Positions 58,631 to 63,738 of a stretch of 64,000 nt of DNA are shown here, in pieces. The notes under the pieces were generated by a model. That model had not been told where the DNA came from. It saw only the letters and a program-made list of their open reading frames with translations, and did no database searches. Source of the DNA: Patescibacteria group bacterium (GTDB lineage Bacteria > Patescibacteriota > Patescibacteriia > JAHJFT01). Every line of letters begins with the position of its first letter. Within the stretch, counting starts at the first letter, position 1. The stretch lies in assembly GCA_028710985.1 (NCBI GenBank), contig JAQTTB010000001.1, forward strand, positions 88,021 to 152,020. Reading direction: 5' to 3'. A program made the translations under genes and the position numbers.

Positions 58631-59925
58631 TATGGATTGAGTCTGTTTATCATTCTTGGGAAGGGAATCGTCTCTCTCACGTGCTTGAGCCCGCAAATCC
58701 ACGCCACGACCCGTTCAAGCCCGAGTCCAAAGCCCGAGTGCGGCACCGATCCGTACCGGCGCAAATCCAGATACCATTCAAAATCCTTGCGCGATAATTT
58801 ATATTCTTCCAGCCTTTTCACGAGTGTTTCGTAATCCTCTTCGCGCTCCGACCCGCCGATTATCTCGCCGTAGCCTTCCGGCGCAAGCAAATCCGAGCAC
58901 AATACCCTTTCCGGATCCTCGGGATCACGCTTCATGTAGAACGCCTTGACCGCGGCCGGATATTTTTCAATAAAAACCGGCTTGTCGTATTTTTCGGATA
59001 ATTTTGTCTCATCATCGCCGCCCAAATCCGCGCCCTCGGCAATGTCCGAACCAAGTTCGCGGACGCGCGCCACCGCCTCTTTATGCGTCAACCGGTAAAA
59101 TGGCGCCTCCACTTTTCGCAACGGCTCAATATCGCGTTCAAGTATGGCAAGTTCCGGGCTGTTTGTCTCAATCACTCTCTGCACGATGTGGCTCAGAAGT
59201 TTTTCCTGAATTTCCATGCTTCCGGCATGATGCACCCAGGCCATCTCCGCGTCCATCATCCAGAATTCGGTAAGATGGCGGCGGGTCTTGGATTTTTCGG
59301 CGCGGAAAACCGGGCCAAAATCGTAAACCGAACCGTGCGCGAAAATCGCCGACTCGCTATAGAGCTGTCCGGACTGCGAAAGATAGGCCTTGCCCAGATC
59401 GAAATAATCCATTTCAAAAAGCTCGGTCGTGTTCTCGCATGAAGTCGGGGTCAATATCGGGGAATCGATTTTTACAAACCCGTTATCATTAAGCCAGCCC
59501 ATCATGGCGTTGATTATCGTGTCGCGGATCCTCATCACCGCCCATTGCCGTTTTGACCGGAGCCAGAGGTGGCGGTTGTCCAGAAGAAAATCCGGGCCGT
59601 GTTCTTTTTTGGAAATGGGGTACTCTTCGGCAATCTGCACGATTTCAAGCTGGCTTGCATGCAGTTCAAATTCTCCGGCCCGCTTTGGATGAGCCGCGAC
59701 GCGGCCGCCGATCTTTAAGGATGTTTCAATGGTAATTTTTTCGGCCGCGTCCCAAACTTCAGCCGAAACGCTCCCCTTGTCAACAATTGCCTGGCAGAAT
59801 CCTGAACCGTCGCGCAGTTCCAGAAAAATCAAAGAACCGGACGAACGCAAATTCGCCGCCCAACCCCAAATTTCCACTTCTTTGTCGTTAAAATCCGAAA
59901 GTTGAAAAATTTTTACCAGTTCCAT
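58630..59925 (-). CDS. asnS: Asparaginyl-tRNA synthetase.
   Basis: Motif 2: FRAEKSKTRRHLTEFWMMDAEMAW. Motif 3: GFGLGLERV. Confidence 0.9.
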   Translation of the reverse strand: MELVKIFQLSDFNDKEVEIWGWAANLRSSGSLIFLELRDGSGFCQAIVDKGSVSAEVWDAAEKITIETSLKIGGRVAAHPKRAGEFELHASQLEIVQIAEEYPISKKEHGPDFLLDNRHLWLRSKRQWAVMRIRDTIINAMMGWLNDNGFVKIDSPILTPTSCENTTELFEMDYFDLGKAYLSQSGQLYSESAIFAHGSVYDFGPVFRAEKSKTRRHLTEFWMMDAEMAWVHHAGSMEIQEKLLSHIVQRVIETNSPELAILERDIEPLRKVEAPFYRLTHKEAVARVRELGSDIAEGADLGGDDETKLSEKYDKPVFIEKYPAAVKAFYMKRDPEDPERVLCSDLLAPEGYGEIIGGSEREEDYETLVKRLEEYKLSRKDFEWYLDLRRYGSVPHSGFGLGLERVVAWICGLKHVRETIPFPRMINRLNP

Positions 59926-59944
59926 ATCGAAAATTTATGCTTAG

Positions 59945-59973
59945 ATTATACATTTTTTTGCGTTTTTCGTCAA
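59945..59973 (-). promoter_or_regulatory. Near-consensus sigma70 promoter (TTGACG, 17-nt spacer, TATAAT) about 20 nt upstream of the asnS ATG; short leader.
   Basis: Minus strand: ttTTGACGaaaaacgcaaaaaaatgTATAATctaagcataaattttcgatATG. Confidence 0.5.
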
Positions 59974-60320
59974 AAATTGCCGTCCTCGCCCGCCACACCA
60001 AAATTTTGGCTAATTTTAGCAAAAAAAGACGGTTCTGCAAATAGACGGGGTTCTTCGCCAGAGGCGAATCTGCCTCAGGCATGACCCAATGCCTCCATGA
60101 ATAAAACTCGCTTGGATGAAAAAACGTAAATGTAGGAGCAGGTCTTGCGCCTGCCCCCATTCGTTTGTCATCATGTAGGGGTTGATTGCAATCAACCCCT
60201 ACGAAATGCGGTTGCTCCAAAATGCGCACACAAAAATAAAAAAAATTCCCGCGCAGACAGAATGTCCACGCAGGAAAAAGCGTACGCGTCCAAGGGCCAA
60301 GAGACCAAGGGACCGAGAGC

Positions 60321-60938
60321 CTACTCGCAGAAAGCAAGGAAACGGCAGGGCCCGTACCACCGGATGCCGCCCCAGCCCCAGTCCAGGTCGAGCTCGCGCC
60401 CGCCATCGCTCCCGCCAAGATACGGGAAGCGGCGGTAGCCGTCCGCACTGACCCACGAGGAGCCGAGGCCGACAATGGGGAACTTCCTCTGCTCATCCGG
60501 GTACGCAGCACCGAAGGCGAGAATGCCTTCTATATCTGCCGGCTTGAGGCCGCGGAGCTTCATCTCCACGAGCGCCTCGTCCGTGGTTGCCTCGCGGCCG
60601 AGGTGGACGAGAACGAGCTTGCGCAAGACTTTGCCCTTGCCCGAGATTGGGAAGTGCTCGGCCGTGATGTCCGAGTTCACGAAGTCGTAGTCGCCGACGG
60701 CGATCATCTCGGCGAGAGACTTGGAGTAGTCCACGGTGACCGAGAATGAATCGGCGACCGCAGCCACGGTCTTGCGCACGATGAGGCTGGCCATGCTCTC
60801 CACGAGCTCTGGCTCGTTGAGTATGCGCCGCAAGTCCTCATCGCCGCCGCCCTTCGCGAGCACGGCGTCTATGAGCTTCTTCAGCATCTCATAGCCCGTA
60901 CCTAATCCGCTCAAGAACTCGCTCTTTTTCCGTGCCAT
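60321..60938 (-). CDS. Hypothetical protein of 205 aa; no motif I can name. GC-rich.
   Basis: MARKKSEFLSGLGTGYEMLKK... Has its own candidate promoter (TTGACA-17-TATTAT) and a GAGGTG Shine-Dalgarno. Confidence 0.45.
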   Translation of the reverse strand: MARKKSEFLSGLGTGYEMLKKLIDAVLAKGGGDEDLRRILNEPELVESMASLIVRKTVAAVADSFSVTVDYSKSLAEMIAVGDYDFVNSDITAEHFPISGKGKVLRKLVLVHLGREATTDEALVEMKLRGLKPADIEGILAFGAAYPDEQRKFPIVGLGSSWVSADGYRRFPYLGGSDGGRELDLDWGWGGIRWYGPCRFLAFCE

Positions 60939-61083
60939 CTTACACCTCATGCTCCGTTTTCCTCCGGAGCTATCTTGGCCTACCCCTTATCCAACGCACC
61001 ATGCGCCAGACCTAAGGCTTGCCGTGCAAAGAACAAATAATACGCAATAATATCATGGTTTAGCCAAATTGTCAAGACCTTTA

Positions 61084-61662
61084 CGTCATTCCCTCCCCCG
61101 CTTTCGCGAGGGTAAACTCCAGCGGGAATCTTGCTAAAAAATCTTGGTGTCATCTGTCATTCCCGCGAAGGCGGGAATCCAAGTTCAATATACCGGGGGA
61201 ATCCTATTGAATATTATCGTACAAATCGCTCCAGAGAGGATTAAAATCTTCAATTATTCTAATTTTCCAATTACGTTTCCATTTTTTTAATTGTTTTTCC
61301 CGTAATATGGCCTCCTCAATATTATCGAATATTTCATAATAGACAAGTTTGTGCACGCCATATTGAGCCGTGAATATGCTATCTTCTCCTTGCTTATGCT
61401 CAAGAACTCGGCGCTTAAGATTATTCGTTACACCGATATAAAGAGTACCGTTTCTGTCGCTTGCGAGGATATAAATATAGAATTGTCGATAATCGGGCAT
61501 TTGTGCGATTGATGTATCTTGGCGGCTTATAGTATCTGGATTCCCGCCTTCGCGGGAATGACGGATGTGCGGTTTATTTTTATCCGTTGCAACTAAATAA
61601 ATTACCATGGGCATGGATTCCCGCTGGAGTTTACCCTCGCGAAAGCGGGGGCGGGAATGACG
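61084..61662. mobile_element. Candidate miniature mobile cassette: a GIY-YIG gene framed by nested inverted repeats. Outer 47-bp pair (46/47 identical) at 61084-61130 and 61616-61662. Inner 25-bp pair (25/25 identical) at 61156-61180 and 61538-61562.
   Basis: cgtcattccctcccccgctttcgcgagggtaaactccagcgggaatc versus its reverse complement. gtcattcccgcgaaggcgggaatcc versus its reverse complement. Extra GGGAATGAC motifs extend to 61738. Confidence 0.45.
61204..61500 (-). CDS. Small GIY-YIG nuclease-domain protein (UPF0213/YhbQ-like).
   Basis: FYIYILASDRNGTLYIGVTNNLKRRVLEHKQG ... EKQLKKWKRNWKIRII. Confidence 0.75.
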   Translation of the reverse strand: MPDYRQFYIYILASDRNGTLYIGVTNNLKRRVLEHKQGEDSIFTAQYGVHKLVYYEIFDNIEEAILREKQLKKWKRNWKIRIIEDFNPLWSDLYDNIQ

Positions 61663-61772
61663 ATAGGTTGAATAGTGTTTCTACCGTCTAAATTCCCGCC
61701 GGAGCCTGTAGTACATATGCGAATGGGGCGGGAATGACAGAGAGATGCGTTCCAATATACTCCCTTCCCACC

Positions 61773-62546
61773 CTAAGCAAACACCTCGTAAAAATATGCC
61801 TCGCTCTTGAGCTCGCGGTCCAGATGATATTTTAAGAATTCATCAATCGCTAAGTCCAAAACCCGGGCGGTTTGCGGCATAATATACGACTCAAGCGTGG
61901 CCGTAAAGCCCTGGCAGGTGAATTCGCGGAGAGTATTGATCGCCTCCCCGCTTATCGCGATCTGCCCCAGTATGCGTCCGCCGAGCCGCTCGGAACAAAC
62001 CGGACAAACAACGCCGCCGCGGGCCGCATTGAAAAAATATCCCTCTCCTTCCGCTTCCTTGCGGCAATCCAGGCAGCGCGAAAGCTCGGGTTCATAGCCC
62101 AGAAAACCGAGCAGCTTCAGGGAAAAAATCCGCGCCACCATAAAACTTCGTTCCCGGAGCAGATGGTTCTGCTCCACGATTTCCATGAGCTCGCGCGTGA
62201 GGTTAAAAATGCGCTCATCCGGCTGGCCGGCGCTTATGAGCTTATCCAGCACCTCAAAACAATACGTCATGAGCGCGATGCCCTCGAGCCGTGCGTGCGT
62301 TGCCGTAAAATTATGAATTCGTTCGCTCCCGGCAAGCTTGTCAATCTGGCGGCCGCGCGCGATCATTACATCCGTGATAATAAACGGCTCAAGATGCGCC
62401 GCCATGCGGCTCTGGAAACGCCGCGACCCGCGCGCCACGGCCTGGATCTTTCCGGCTTCGCGCGTATACAAAGTATAGAGCCGGTCGTATTCGCGCCACG
62501 GCTCTTTTTTTATCACGATTGATTCGGTGCGGAAAGTTGATGGCAT
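61773..62546 (-). CDS. recO: DNA repair protein RecO.
   Basis: OB-fold N-terminus. C-terminal zinc motif CLDCRK...VCPVCSE. Confidence 0.8.
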   Translation of the reverse strand: MPSTFRTESIVIKKEPWREYDRLYTLYTREAGKIQAVARGSRRFQSRMAAHLEPFIITDVMIARGRQIDKLAGSERIHNFTATHARLEGIALMTYCFEVLDKLISAGQPDERIFNLTRELMEIVEQNHLLRERSFMVARIFSLKLLGFLGYEPELSRCLDCRKEAEGEGYFFNAARGGVVCPVCSERLGGRILGQIAISGEAINTLREFTCQGFTATLESYIMPQTARVLDLAIDEFLKYHLDRELKSEAYFYEVFA

Positions 62547-62950
62547 TAAATTTTATCAAGATATCCCTGCAGAATCAGCATTGCCGCGACCGCGTCCTTT
62601 TTTTCTTTTGGGTATTTTTGCCCGGCTAATAATTTTTCAACCTGAGCCGATGTAAACCGCTCATCCTGCTCACGGACCGGTACGGGAGATGCGGCGCCAA
62701 GCCGCGCGATGAAATCCGAAATAATTTTTTCCTGCTCGCCGGGCGCGCCCGTGTCTTCTCCGAGCGAATACGGCATGCCGACCACGATCTCGCCGATATC
62801 TTCGTCCTTAATAATTCGCGTTAATTTATCAAGCACTGCTTCCACGCCCGGATTATCCAGAACCGTAAAAGGAACCGCGATTTTTGTTTCGCTGTCCCCG
62901 AACGCAAGCCCGATTCTTTTTCCCCCGTAATCAATCCCCAGGTATCGCAT
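62546..62950 (-). CDS. ruvX: Holliday-junction resolvase-like protein RuvX/YqgF.
   Basis: MRYLGIDYGGKRIGLAFGD. Confidence 0.8.
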   Translation of the reverse strand: MRYLGIDYGGKRIGLAFGDSETKIAVPFTVLDNPGVEAVLDKLTRIIKDEDIGEIVVGMPYSLGEDTGAPGEQEKIISDFIARLGAASPVPVREQDERFTSAQVEKLLAGQKYPKEKKDAVAAMLILQGYLDKI

Positions 62951-62955
62951 ATATG

Positions 62956-63738
62956 TTAATCGATAAATGGCGTAATCACTTTTCTGCCGCGCTCCGTCAC
63001 CACAACCGTCACTTCCGCGTGGGCCGATAAATTTCCGTCCGCCGCCACGATTGTCCATCCGTCCGGCCGGGTTTTAATCCTATGGTCGCCCATCGTAAGC
63101 ATGGGCTCAATGGCGAGGCACATGCCCGGCTCAAGCAAAATGTCGGAAAGCGACGGATCATCGTAATTCGGTACGCGCGGCGACTCATGCACCGCGTATC
63201 CCACGCCATGGCCGGTCAAATCGCGCACGATTCCAAATCCGTATCTCGTGGCATGTCTTTCAATCGTACGGCCGATATCGCCGAGATAGGCGCCCGGACG
63301 CACTGTCTTTACCGCGCGCCGGAGCGCCTGGCGCGTCGCGGCAATAAGCCGGCGAACCGATTGCGGCGGCCGTCCCAGATAAAACGTAACGGCCATGTCC
63401 GTAAAAAGCCCTTTATATTTTGCGCCGAAATCCAGGCTGACAAGATCGCCTTTCCGGAGAACGCGGTTCGGCACCGACAGGCCGTGCACAATTTCTTCGT
63501 TGATGGAAATGCAGATTGCGCCCGGATATCCTTCGCGCTCGCCGGACGGCCGGTAATTTAAAAAAGACGGCTCCGCGCCGCGCTTCGCGAGCTCGGCGCG
63601 GGCGAACATCTCGAGATCCTCTGTTCCGGATCCGGGCACCGCGCGCTCCCTGATCGCTTTAAGCGCCTCCGAAAGAATGCGGCCGCCCTCGGCCAATATC
63701 GCGATCTCTTCCGCCGATTTTTTAGTTACGTATGCCAT
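62956..63738 (-). CDS. map: Methionine aminopeptidase type I.
   Basis: DLVSLDFGAKYKGLFTDMAVTF ... HGVGYAVHESP ... EPMLT. Confidence 0.9.
   Translation of the reverse strand: MAYVTKKSAEEIAILAEGGRILSEALKAIRERAVPGSGTEDLEMFARAELAKRGAEPSFLNYRPSGEREGYPGAICISINEEIVHGLSVPNRVLRKGDLVSLDFGAKYKGLFTDMAVTFYLGRPPQSVRRLIAATRQALRRAVKTVRPGAYLGDIGRTIERHATRYGFGIVRDLTGHGVGYAVHESPRVPNYDDPSLSDILLEPGMCLAIEPMLTMGDHRIKTRPDGWTIVAADGNLSAHAEVTVVVTERGRKVITPFID

Follow-up and report, generated by a model that had tools for sequence, protein, structure and literature searches.

A putative Ssn-family GIY-YIG nuclease gene between nested, convergent NTS-like hairpins in a Patescibacteria genome

The DNA analyzed here is a stretch of 64,000 nucleotides from a Patescibacteria group bacterium (contig JAQTTB010000001.1, positions 88,021 to 152,020), which is referred to as the window. 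Between positions 61084 and 61739 of the window, five related palindromic elements are grouped around one small gene, designated ssn, that encodes a protein of 98 amino acids (aa). The elements correspond to the NTS and SRM hairpins known from the Ssn family of single-stranded DNA (ssDNA) nucleases. The features of the locus are as follows:

61204-61500 (- strand): ssn gene; 98-aa single-domain GIY-YIG nuclease assigned to the Ssn (SsnA-like) family; GC content 35%, GC content at third codon positions (GC3) 34%
61084-61133 (+ strand): long SRM hairpin, left outer copy; CGTCATTCCC-T-CCCCCGCTTTCGCGAGGGTAAACTCCAGCGGGAATCTTG; CGTC 5' flank, NTS stem, 3' C
61151-61195 (no strand assigned): extended inner left arm; 45 nt, 84% complementary to 61523-61567
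61155-61182 (+ strand): short NTS-like hairpin, left inner copy; TGTCATTCCCGCGAAGGCGGGAATCCAA; 26 of 28 positions as in the NTS consensus
61523-61567 (no strand assigned): extended inner right arm; 45 nt, 84% complementary to 61151-61195
61536-61563 (- strand): canonical NTS, right inner copy; CGTCATTCCCGCGAAGGCGGGAATCCAG; 28 of 28 positions as in the NTS consensus
61613-61662 (- strand): long SRM hairpin, right outer copy; CGTCATTCCCGCCCCCGCTTTCGCGAGGGTAAACTCCAGCGGGAATCCAT; 8-bp outer stem intact
61688-61739 (- strand): third right-hand copy; TGTCATTCCCGCC-(26 nt of other sequence)-GGCGGGAATTTAG; same flank and stem, returned by the repeat search as 61692-61738

The Ssn family comprises the single-domain GIY-YIG proteins of CDD family cd10448 (Chenal et al. 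2025, Nat Commun, PMC11893778). SsnA of Neisseria meningitidis (NMV_0044/NMB0047) binds an oriented 28-nt hairpin, the NTS CGTCATTCCCGCGMAVGCGGGAATCYRG, which contains the older dRS3 repeat; the NTS is bound only as ssDNA and is nicked a few nucleotides upstream in a strand-specific manner. A GTC flank is needed for cleavage and a 3' C for binding, and the enzyme tolerates removal as well as extension of the loop, while the published SRM pattern has a loop of 0-5 nt. At least one flanking SRM was reported for 71% of the bacterial ssn genes and SRMs on both sides for 42%. The same study already described the NTS-ssnA-NTS architecture and its resemblance to insertion sequences (IS) and to RAYT/REP systems, raised the hypothesis of mobility, and showed that SsnA activity in Neisseria lowers the recombination of incoming NTS-flanked DNA (all PMC11893778).

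The outer arms of the cassette (61084-61130 and 61616-61662, 47 nt each) are complementary at 46 of 47 positions (98%) according to the repeat search, the single mismatch being the T at 61094, and the inner arms GTCATTCCCGCGAAGGCGGGAATCC (61156-61180 on the + strand and 61538-61562 on the - strand) correspond to each other at all 25 positions. A preliminary description of the locus had reported a 98-aa GIY-YIG gene enclosed by exactly these two pairs of inverted repeats, and the repeat search along with a match to PF01541 confirmed this picture. The 84% match over the 45-nt extended arms indicates that the similarity of the inner repeats reaches about 15 nt beyond the NTS in the direction of the gene. 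That the repeats are internally palindromic was likewise borne out, since each of them forms a hairpin (ssDNA folds of -6.5 to -11.9 kcal/mol), and a fifth related copy is located at 61688-61739.

Apart from the right inner copy, nothing in the window matches the published NTS and SRM patterns (the mean number of SRM matches in shuffled sequences was 0.29); this copy precedes the ssn start codon by 35 nt and has the sense orientation of the gene. Relative to the NTS consensus, the left inner copy deviates at the first and the last base, the latter being the sole position at which it misses the published SRM pattern. In both outer copies, which share the flanks and the stem of the NTS, a 26-nt insert replaces the 4-nt loop, and in the left one the T at 61094 disrupts one pair of the stem. 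The third right-hand copy carries a T instead of a C after the palindrome; since this C is reported to be the base most important for binding by SsnA (PMC11893778), the copy is probably degenerate. The + strand elements read CGTCATTCCC...GGGAATC (long form) or TGTCATTCCC...GGGAATC (short form), and the three - strand elements read likewise. All five copies keep the GTC flank and four keep the 3' C; moreover, all five point towards the gene, the left copies being on the + strand and the right copies on the - strand. The motif GGGAATGAC occurs five times in the window, exclusively at the ssn locus (0.65 occurrences expected; five were reached in none of 100 shuffled sequences), and the five occurrences of ATTCCC-N(4-34)-GGGAAT are likewise confined to this locus (0.32 expected). 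When folded as ssDNA, the inner copies yielded -8.9 kcal/mol (z-scores of -4.25 on the left and -3.4 on the right), the right outer copy -11.9 kcal/mol (z -2.95) and the third right-hand copy -8.9 kcal/mol (z -2.57). NTS/SRM hairpins are accordingly present within less than 500 bp on both sides of the gene, with the strict published expression being matched on the 5' side only.

The deduced protein matches PF01541 with an E-value of 1.5e-17 over residues 45-118 of a 136-aa open reading frame (ORF), which corresponds to approximately the whole 98-aa protein, whereas the longer ORF (61204-61614, - strand) results from read-through of the upstream hairpin. The identical 98 aa are annotated by NCBI as MDD4994972.1, beside RecO (MDD4994973.1), on a 744,538-nt contig of a Patescibacteria metagenome-assembled genome (MAG). 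With a single GIY-YIG domain and no additional DNA-binding domain, the protein falls into the size class of Ssn proteins (approximately 90-150 aa). It is 51% identical to the SsnA orthologue of N. gonorrhoeae in a gapless alignment of 92 of 94 aa (pairwise E-value 2e-32); the gonococcal locus was recovered by tblastn with an E-value of 3e-15 in 7.3 Gb. The reference used is the 94-aa ORF at positions 1504-1788 of the gonococcal sequence L135 (aligned part 1504-1785), with the residues Y6, Y17 and E64, and the alignment to this orthologue lies within the published BLASTP thresholds for similarity to Neisseria SsnA (E < 1e-10, at least 75% query coverage). The residues Y10, Y21 and E68 of the 98-aa protein align with Y6, Y17 and E64 of Neisseria SsnA at identical spacing, and the alignment shows no variation at Y10, Y21, R31, H35 and E68. 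As a side observation, L135 stems from the PLSDB entries NZ_CP119140.1 and NZ_CP119142.1, which are two 2.17-Mb N. gonorrhoeae chromosomes misfiled as plasmids, and the gonococcal ssnA gene is flanked on either side by NTS copies (L135 1294-1321, 1373-1398, 1792-1818 and 1866-1892).

The identity to Escherichia coli YhbQ amounts to 25% (E-value 1e-7), and the Ssn-specific blocks YILAS-RNGTLYIGVT and REKQLKKW-R-WK are not found in YhbQ. Among solved structures the best matches are the UPF0213 proteins BH0048 (E-value 3.4e-6) and EF2693 (E-value 4.3e-4). Searches of PADLOC and PHROGs gave no significant match, and exact look-ups of the protein in its 98-aa and 136-aa forms, as well as of P0001, P0002 and P0162, returned none. 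The identity of 51% to SsnA as opposed to 25% to YhbQ, together with the invariant residues, indicates that the gene is a member of the Ssn family and not a YhbQ orthologue; by its sequence it is a probable member of cd10448, Pfam resolving the superfamily only. The designation YhbQ-like in the preliminary description is therefore not retained, as the likeness goes no deeper than the superfamily.

The association of gene and repeat was also evident in a scan for homologues with one genome per species, which yielded 80 loci with 55-66% identity from Alpha- and Gammaproteobacteria, Patescibacteria, Planctomycetota, Bacteroidota, Nitrospirota and others. At a distance of at most 400 nt from the gene, 42 of the 80 loci contain the strict motif GTCATTCC[CG]-N(4-45)-[CG]GGAAT, 15 of them on both sides, and the density of this motif by the gene is 35 times that of the remaining +/-10 kb. 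The orientation relative to the gene is biased in the same manner as in the window, with a ratio of 25:9 in favour of '+' upstream and of 24:11 in favour of '-' downstream, and one locus (L052) displays the same arrangement of nested copies, ++ gene --. Among these loci, variants with a long loop, in which 13-36 nt separate the stem halves, are common. The closest homologues other than the protein itself (72-74% identity) are located by a uvrC-like gene in one case and by glycosyltransferase genes in the other, and both have an NTS(+) upstream and an NTS(-) downstream. An alphaproteobacterial contig (CAVZHM010000009.1) contains two ssn paralogues, L035 and L071, that are 490 kb apart and share 81% DNA identity strictly within the coding sequence (CDS); no strict-motif hairpins were found near either of them. 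The all-against-all DNA comparison of 84 cassette regions detected one orthologous pair and this one CDS-only pair of paralogues. We also observed that gene callers often extend ORFs through the hairpins (P0003 and P0029; in the window the ORFs 61204-61614 and 60980-61153, both on the - strand). The spurious N-terminal peptides that result from such read-through (VIPAKAGI, MPAFAGMT, HSREGGNP and IPAGVYPRESGGGND) link unrelated ORFs in all-against-all protein searches.

The preliminary description had proposed a search for further copies of the 47-nt inverted repeat. An exact search of JGI metagenomes with 30 nt of this element detected it on 45 contigs (L086-L130; examples are L114 2123-2212 and L130 1324-1368) with GC contents of 32-69%, so that the repeat is not unique; the remainder of the element is near-identical on these contigs, and the flanks are unrelated. 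No Ssn homologue was detected on the 45 contigs, 16 of which continue for 700 nt or more to either side of the element. In contigs of high GC content, open-frame length proved an unreliable guide to whether the solo copies are intergenic. After removal of duplicates, an inverted partner was found downstream in 10 of 31 distinct copies, usually at a gap of approximately 22-24 nt, and upstream in 2 of 36. In several contigs the doublet is framed by GAGACCTTTGAA...TTCAAAGGTCTC in the manner of terminal inverted repeats (TIRs), which yields a unit of approximately 170 nt resembling a miniature inverted-repeat transposable element (MITE) or a REPIN. Compensated base changes were observed in both stems: in L097 (6190-6238) the outer stem ATTCCCGC/GCGGGAAT is changed to ACTCCTGC/GCAGGAGT by two swaps (T:A to C:G and C:G to T:A), with a loop that differs at one base, and in L138 (2943-2986 and 3035-3078) an inner-stem C:G pair is replaced by T:A. 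Downstream of an ssn homologue, the L138 copies form part of a 92-nt tandem array of 2.8 copies with 99% identity. It may be that a second factor or a paralogue-specific Ssn protein recognizes the 26-nt loop, which is exactly conserved in the 47-nt variant. A clustering of the ORFs on the 45 contigs for a recurrently linked gene yielded only artefacts of repeat translation (WIPAGVYPRESGGGND) and generic tetratricopeptide repeat proteins. Neither the 47-nt element nor close ssn homologues were found on viral contigs and in phage records.

With regard to the genomic setting, the cassette lies between a GC-rich ORF (60321-60950) and recO (61773-62546), as the preliminary description had it. The low GC and GC3 values of ssn differ from the 51.5% GC of the window and the GC3 of 65% of recO. 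In relatives whose RecO proteins are 63-66% identical, the gene order is RuvX-RecO-...-tRNA-Asn-small lipoprotein-like gene-AsnRS (asparaginyl-tRNA synthetase), and their RecO-AsnRS interval contains neither ssn nor an NTS, although these relatives are too distant to define an empty site. A comparison of two of them (L131 6777-8062 and L133 6774-7442) with positions 59925-61773 of the window showed that RecO and AsnRS are separated in them by a tRNA-Asn(GTT) gene and a lipoprotein-like gene of 71-72 aa. The corresponding interval of the window is devoid of that lipoprotein-like gene, and tRNA-Asn was not found anywhere in the 64 kb; the part that can still be aligned with the relatives is limited to about 100 nt upstream of AsnRS. 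The RecO-AsnRS interval is thus a variable spot that adjoins a tRNA gene in the relatives and holds the cassette and the GC-rich ORF in the window. The locus is thus not syntenic in the relatives, and the repeat occurs on 45 contigs, so that the outcome named in the preliminary description as refuting its reading (a repeat unique in the genome at a conserved, syntenic locus) did not arise; the comparative data fit a horizontally moving module. By its composition and position, the ssn module is best described as a horizontally acquired island in this interval. The MAG of approximately 0.9 Mb apparently contains three paralogues, as judged from the protein records MDD4994972.1, MDD4995542.1 and MDD4995577.1 (100%, 97% and 81% identity). 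The latter two are encoded on one 159,616-nt contig with accessions in the same block, and we infer that they are part of the same assembly.

Several observations concern the neighbourhood of the cassette. The 209-aa ORF at 60321-60950 (- strand) has a GC content of 62% and a GC3 of 83% and gave no match in Pfam, NCBIfam, PHROG or PADLOC. Its composition is at the opposite extreme to that of the ssn cassette, so that they appear to have been acquired separately within this interval. A near-consensus promoter-like site (TTGACA-17-TATTAT with an extended TG, 61075-61047, - strand) abuts the left outer hairpin. The RuvX ORF (62546-63058, - strand) overlaps the start of recO by one base and comprises 170 aa from the first ATG and 134 aa on Logan contigs; the true start is probably internal, because the Pfam match begins at residue 37. 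Five Logan contigs with recO and the GC-rich ORF (L001-L005, from SRR22315506, SRR22315508 and SRR22315509) are 100% identical to the window where compared and end inside the outer repeat, at 61622-61626 on the right and at approximately 61124 on the left. These ends were considered as a sign of multicopy repeats and rejected as such, since a de Bruijn assembly would in any case be expected to stop at an inverted repeat that exceeds the k-mer in length. The same assembly break would explain why the ssn gene itself is missing from the Logan collection.

Taken together, these data make it very probable that the locus represents the gene of a site-specific ssDNA endonuclease of the Ssn family with its cognate NTS/SRM hairpins on either side, in other words an NTS-ssn-NTS arrangement. 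The mode of action can be modelled on Neisseria SsnA and three other tested homologues, and cleavage of ssDNA, the cut positions and the biological role of the Ssn protein are predicted here by analogy with these enzymes. When NTS DNA becomes single-stranded, possibly during DNA uptake, replication or repair, the 8-bp stem ATTCCCGC/GCGGGAAT would fold, and the 98-aa protein would bind the hairpin and its oriented flanks (5' GTC and 3' C) on the strand reading CGTC-ATTCCCGC...GCGGGAAT-C. The bound strand would then be nicked a few nucleotides 5' of the element, with double-stranded DNA, RNA and the complementary strand being left uncut. Nicks are predicted on the + strand just left of 61084 and 61155 and on the - strand just right of 61563, 61662 and 61739. 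Because the five copies are convergent, the predicted nicks would lie on opposite strands, towards either outer edge of the cassette. The long copies are plausible substrates, since SsnA tolerates loop extensions (PMC11893778), and cleavage adjacent to them is a reasonable expectation. The only NTS-flanked gene in the window is ssn itself, so that a self-associated and possibly selfish module would fit better than a domesticated genome-wide system of the kind present in pathogenic Neisseria.

A number of points weigh against this interpretation. The published search patterns are satisfied by one of the five copies, and the long-loop copies are outside the published SRM pattern (loop N0-5), so that their expected cleavage draws on loop-extension experiments with a different enzyme. 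The left outer copy folds weakly as ssDNA (-6.5 kcal/mol, z -0.5) owing to the stem mismatch at 61094. The identity value was measured against the N. gonorrhoeae orthologue and not against the N. meningitidis reference CAX49033.1, and a search for a promoter-like site between recO and ssn found none. Finally, we know of no role in natural transformation that has been shown outside Neisseria.

Three other explanations of the locus have to be weighed against an Ssn module. That ssn might be an ordinary housekeeping gene for a DNA-damage nuclease of the YhbQ/UPF0213 type, bracketed by chance by REP-like palindromes, would be in line with the shared Pfam domain, the size class and the best structural matches BH0048 and EF2693, but the higher identity to SsnA (51% versus 25%), the Ssn-specific blocks missing from YhbQ, the exact correspondence of the repeats to the Ssn recognition consensus and the lack of the gene at the syntenic site of the relatives render it highly improbable. 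Equally hard to accept is a free-standing GIY-YIG homing endonuclease gene of the I-TevI type. Its basis would be weak matches to the group I intron endonuclease family TIGR01453 and to PHROG families of GIY-YIG homing endonucleases (E-values of approximately 1e-3), the former of which, with 22.9 bits, remains far under the cut-off of 56.05 bits. With neither a linker nor a DNA-binding domain, the protein is confined to the catalytic domain and ends right behind it, and no phage relatives were found. The locus also offers no intron or intein context, a search of positions 60000-62800 against Rfam at E <= 1 having returned nothing except one weak, sub-threshold match to RcsR1 inside recO.

Slightly less remote, yet still improbable, is a chiefly regulatory function of the hairpins, either in termination or attenuation in the intervals that separate ssn from recO and from the downstream ORF, or as operators through which ssn would regulate itself. 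The hairpins do occupy intergenic positions 35 nt before the start codon and 21 nt past the stop codon, and regulation was at first considered by Chenal et al. (PMC11893778). Terminator-like sites with a T-run were however not found (0 versus 1.3 expected), and the conservation of asymmetric flanks across phyla, the strand-specific cleavage in the characterized family and the solo copies far from any ssn gene are at variance with a mainly regulatory role. An Ssn nuclease gene with its own recognition sites accounts for the locus with far greater probability than any of these three explanations.

A different question is what the module does for itself, and for this reason a reading as an autonomous IS-like element is compatible with membership in the Ssn family. 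In such an element the convergent hairpins would be the ends, the GIY-YIG nuclease would be the mobilizer, and the gene-less doublets would be non-autonomous derivatives resembling MITEs or REPINs. The preliminary description had suggested a selfish IS- or MITE-like cassette; the part of this proposal that holds is the nuclease gene inside its own repeat system, whereas the repeats turned out to be NTS/SRM hairpins and not generic IS or MITE ends around a captured YhbQ gene. Mobility would be in agreement with the apparently three paralogues (100%, 97% and 81%) in one MAG of about 0.9 Mb, the low-GC character of the cassette and its lack at the syntenic site of the relatives. It would also agree with the 72-74% homologues that share the NTS(+)-gene-NTS(-) layout in unrelated contexts, and with the occurrence of the identical 47-nt hairpin on 45 contigs of 32-69% GC with unrelated flanks and no detected ssn. 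The excess of downstream over upstream inverted partners (10 of 31 versus 2 of 36) and the TIR-like GAGACCTTTGAA...TTCAAAGGTCTC extensions point in the same direction, and inverted repeats at the ends, as are typical of IS elements, are present in the outer (46/47) and inner (25/25) pairs. The same hypothesis was raised by the authors of the Ssn study (PMC11893778).

Several findings argue against it. No target-site duplication was found in any of six pairings of ends, the longest string shared by the flanks being 3 nt; the pair of sites 61080-61084 and 61662-61666, which the preliminary description had singled out for such a duplication, reads TTTAC and GATAG. This point is tempered by the fact that some IS families make no target-site duplication. 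No transposase domain (DDE, HUH, serine or tyrosine) is encoded, GIY-YIG being the only domain, and no other ORF of the cassette matched a family. GIY-YIG enzymes hydrolyse DNA and form no covalent intermediate, and they are not known to catalyse strand transfer. The convergent sites lead to predicted nicks on opposite strands, unlike the one-strand excision of IS200/IS605 elements. Furthermore, the paralogues L035 and L071 are alike only within the CDS, so that no discrete element boundary was recovered, and close homologues or repeat copies are missing from viral contigs and phage records. The cassette itself is not a MITE, as it has an intact gene, and the gene-less doublets were found in contigs of other organisms and not in the window. 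On balance, an autonomous IS-like element is a possible but rather unlikely description of the cassette. We hypothesize that the cassette might be self-mobile, and the nuclease might also propagate the hairpins or the cassette in the way proposed for RAYTs and REPINs; the specific proposal that SRM(+)-ssn-SRM(-) is an autonomous mobile element and that the gene-less SRM doublets (spacer of approximately 22-24 nt, some with GAGACCTTTGAA/TTCAAAGGTCTC) are its non-autonomous counterpart is equally doubtful. If it were correct, it would imply mobilization by a GIY-YIG hydrolase via an ssDNA route, a functional analogue of RAYT/REPIN systems built on an unrelated enzyme, and spread across phyla.

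Since the Ssn family and the NTS-ssn-NTS layout have been known since 2025, the present analysis adds a Patescibacteria member. It also contributes, as incremental findings, the nesting of short and long sites, the distribution of the 47-nt long-loop variant across dissimilar genomes, the gene-less convergent doublets and the apparent presence of three paralogues in a MAG of about 0.9 Mb. The locus provides a Patescibacteria example of a nuclease family whose characterization dates back no further than 2025 and which attracts interest as a site-specific tool for cutting ssDNA, and it constitutes a ready pair of enzyme and sites, with short and long-loop variants, for specificity testing. The paralogues, the syntenic absence, the range of 32-69% GC over which the hairpin is spread and the doublets are relevant to a present or past mobility of Ssn modules and do not settle this question.

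A comparison with known systems places the locus closest to SsnA and the NTS of Neisseria (PMC11893778). Both systems have a single-domain GIY-YIG protein of approximately 95 aa (51% identity) with equally spaced catalytic Y/Y/E residues and convergent hairpins on both sides of the gene, one hairpin of the window being identical to the 28-nt NTS consensus, and the family spans phyla. Unlike the neisserial system, the present one is known from its sequence, resides in a MAG of the Patescibacteria (candidate phyla radiation, CPR) with apparently three paralogues in about 0.9 Mb, and has nested repeats with a short NTS and a 47-nt long-loop variant on each side. Pathogenic Neisseria moreover contain hundreds of NTS copies, whereas no NTS is present elsewhere in the 64 kb. 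YhbQ/UPF0213 proteins (E. coli b3155; PDB 1zg2 and 1ywl) are likewise stand-alone GIY-YIG domains of about 100 aa, but at 25% identity YhbQ has neither the Ssn-specific motifs nor an association with NTS/SRM repeats. The neisserial intergenic mosaic elements (NIMEs), in which dRS3 brackets RS segments, share the bracketing of variable segments by intergenic hairpin arrays of the ATTCCC-N8-GGGAAT type; NIMEs are non-coding arrays in Neisseria, whereas the bracketed segment of the window is the nuclease gene itself.

Elements of the IS200/IS605 type resemble the cassette in their subterminal ssDNA hairpins, small size and lack of a terminal target duplication. Their ends are located on one strand and are cut there by TnpA, whereas the sites of the cassette are inverted with predicted nicks on opposite strands, and neither TnpA nor TnpB is encoded. 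RAYT proteins are domesticated HUH Y1 transposases of the IS200/IS605 type that are flanked by repetitive extragenic palindromes (REPs). As in the RAYT/REP-REPIN systems, a small nuclease gene is located in the window between inverted copies of the ssDNA hairpin that its product would recognize, and gene-less hairpins are dispersed as singlets and convergent doublets. The two systems differ in that the enzyme of the present locus is a GIY-YIG hydrolase with no known strand-transfer chemistry instead of an HUH tyrosine transposase, and in the unrelated sequences of their hairpins.

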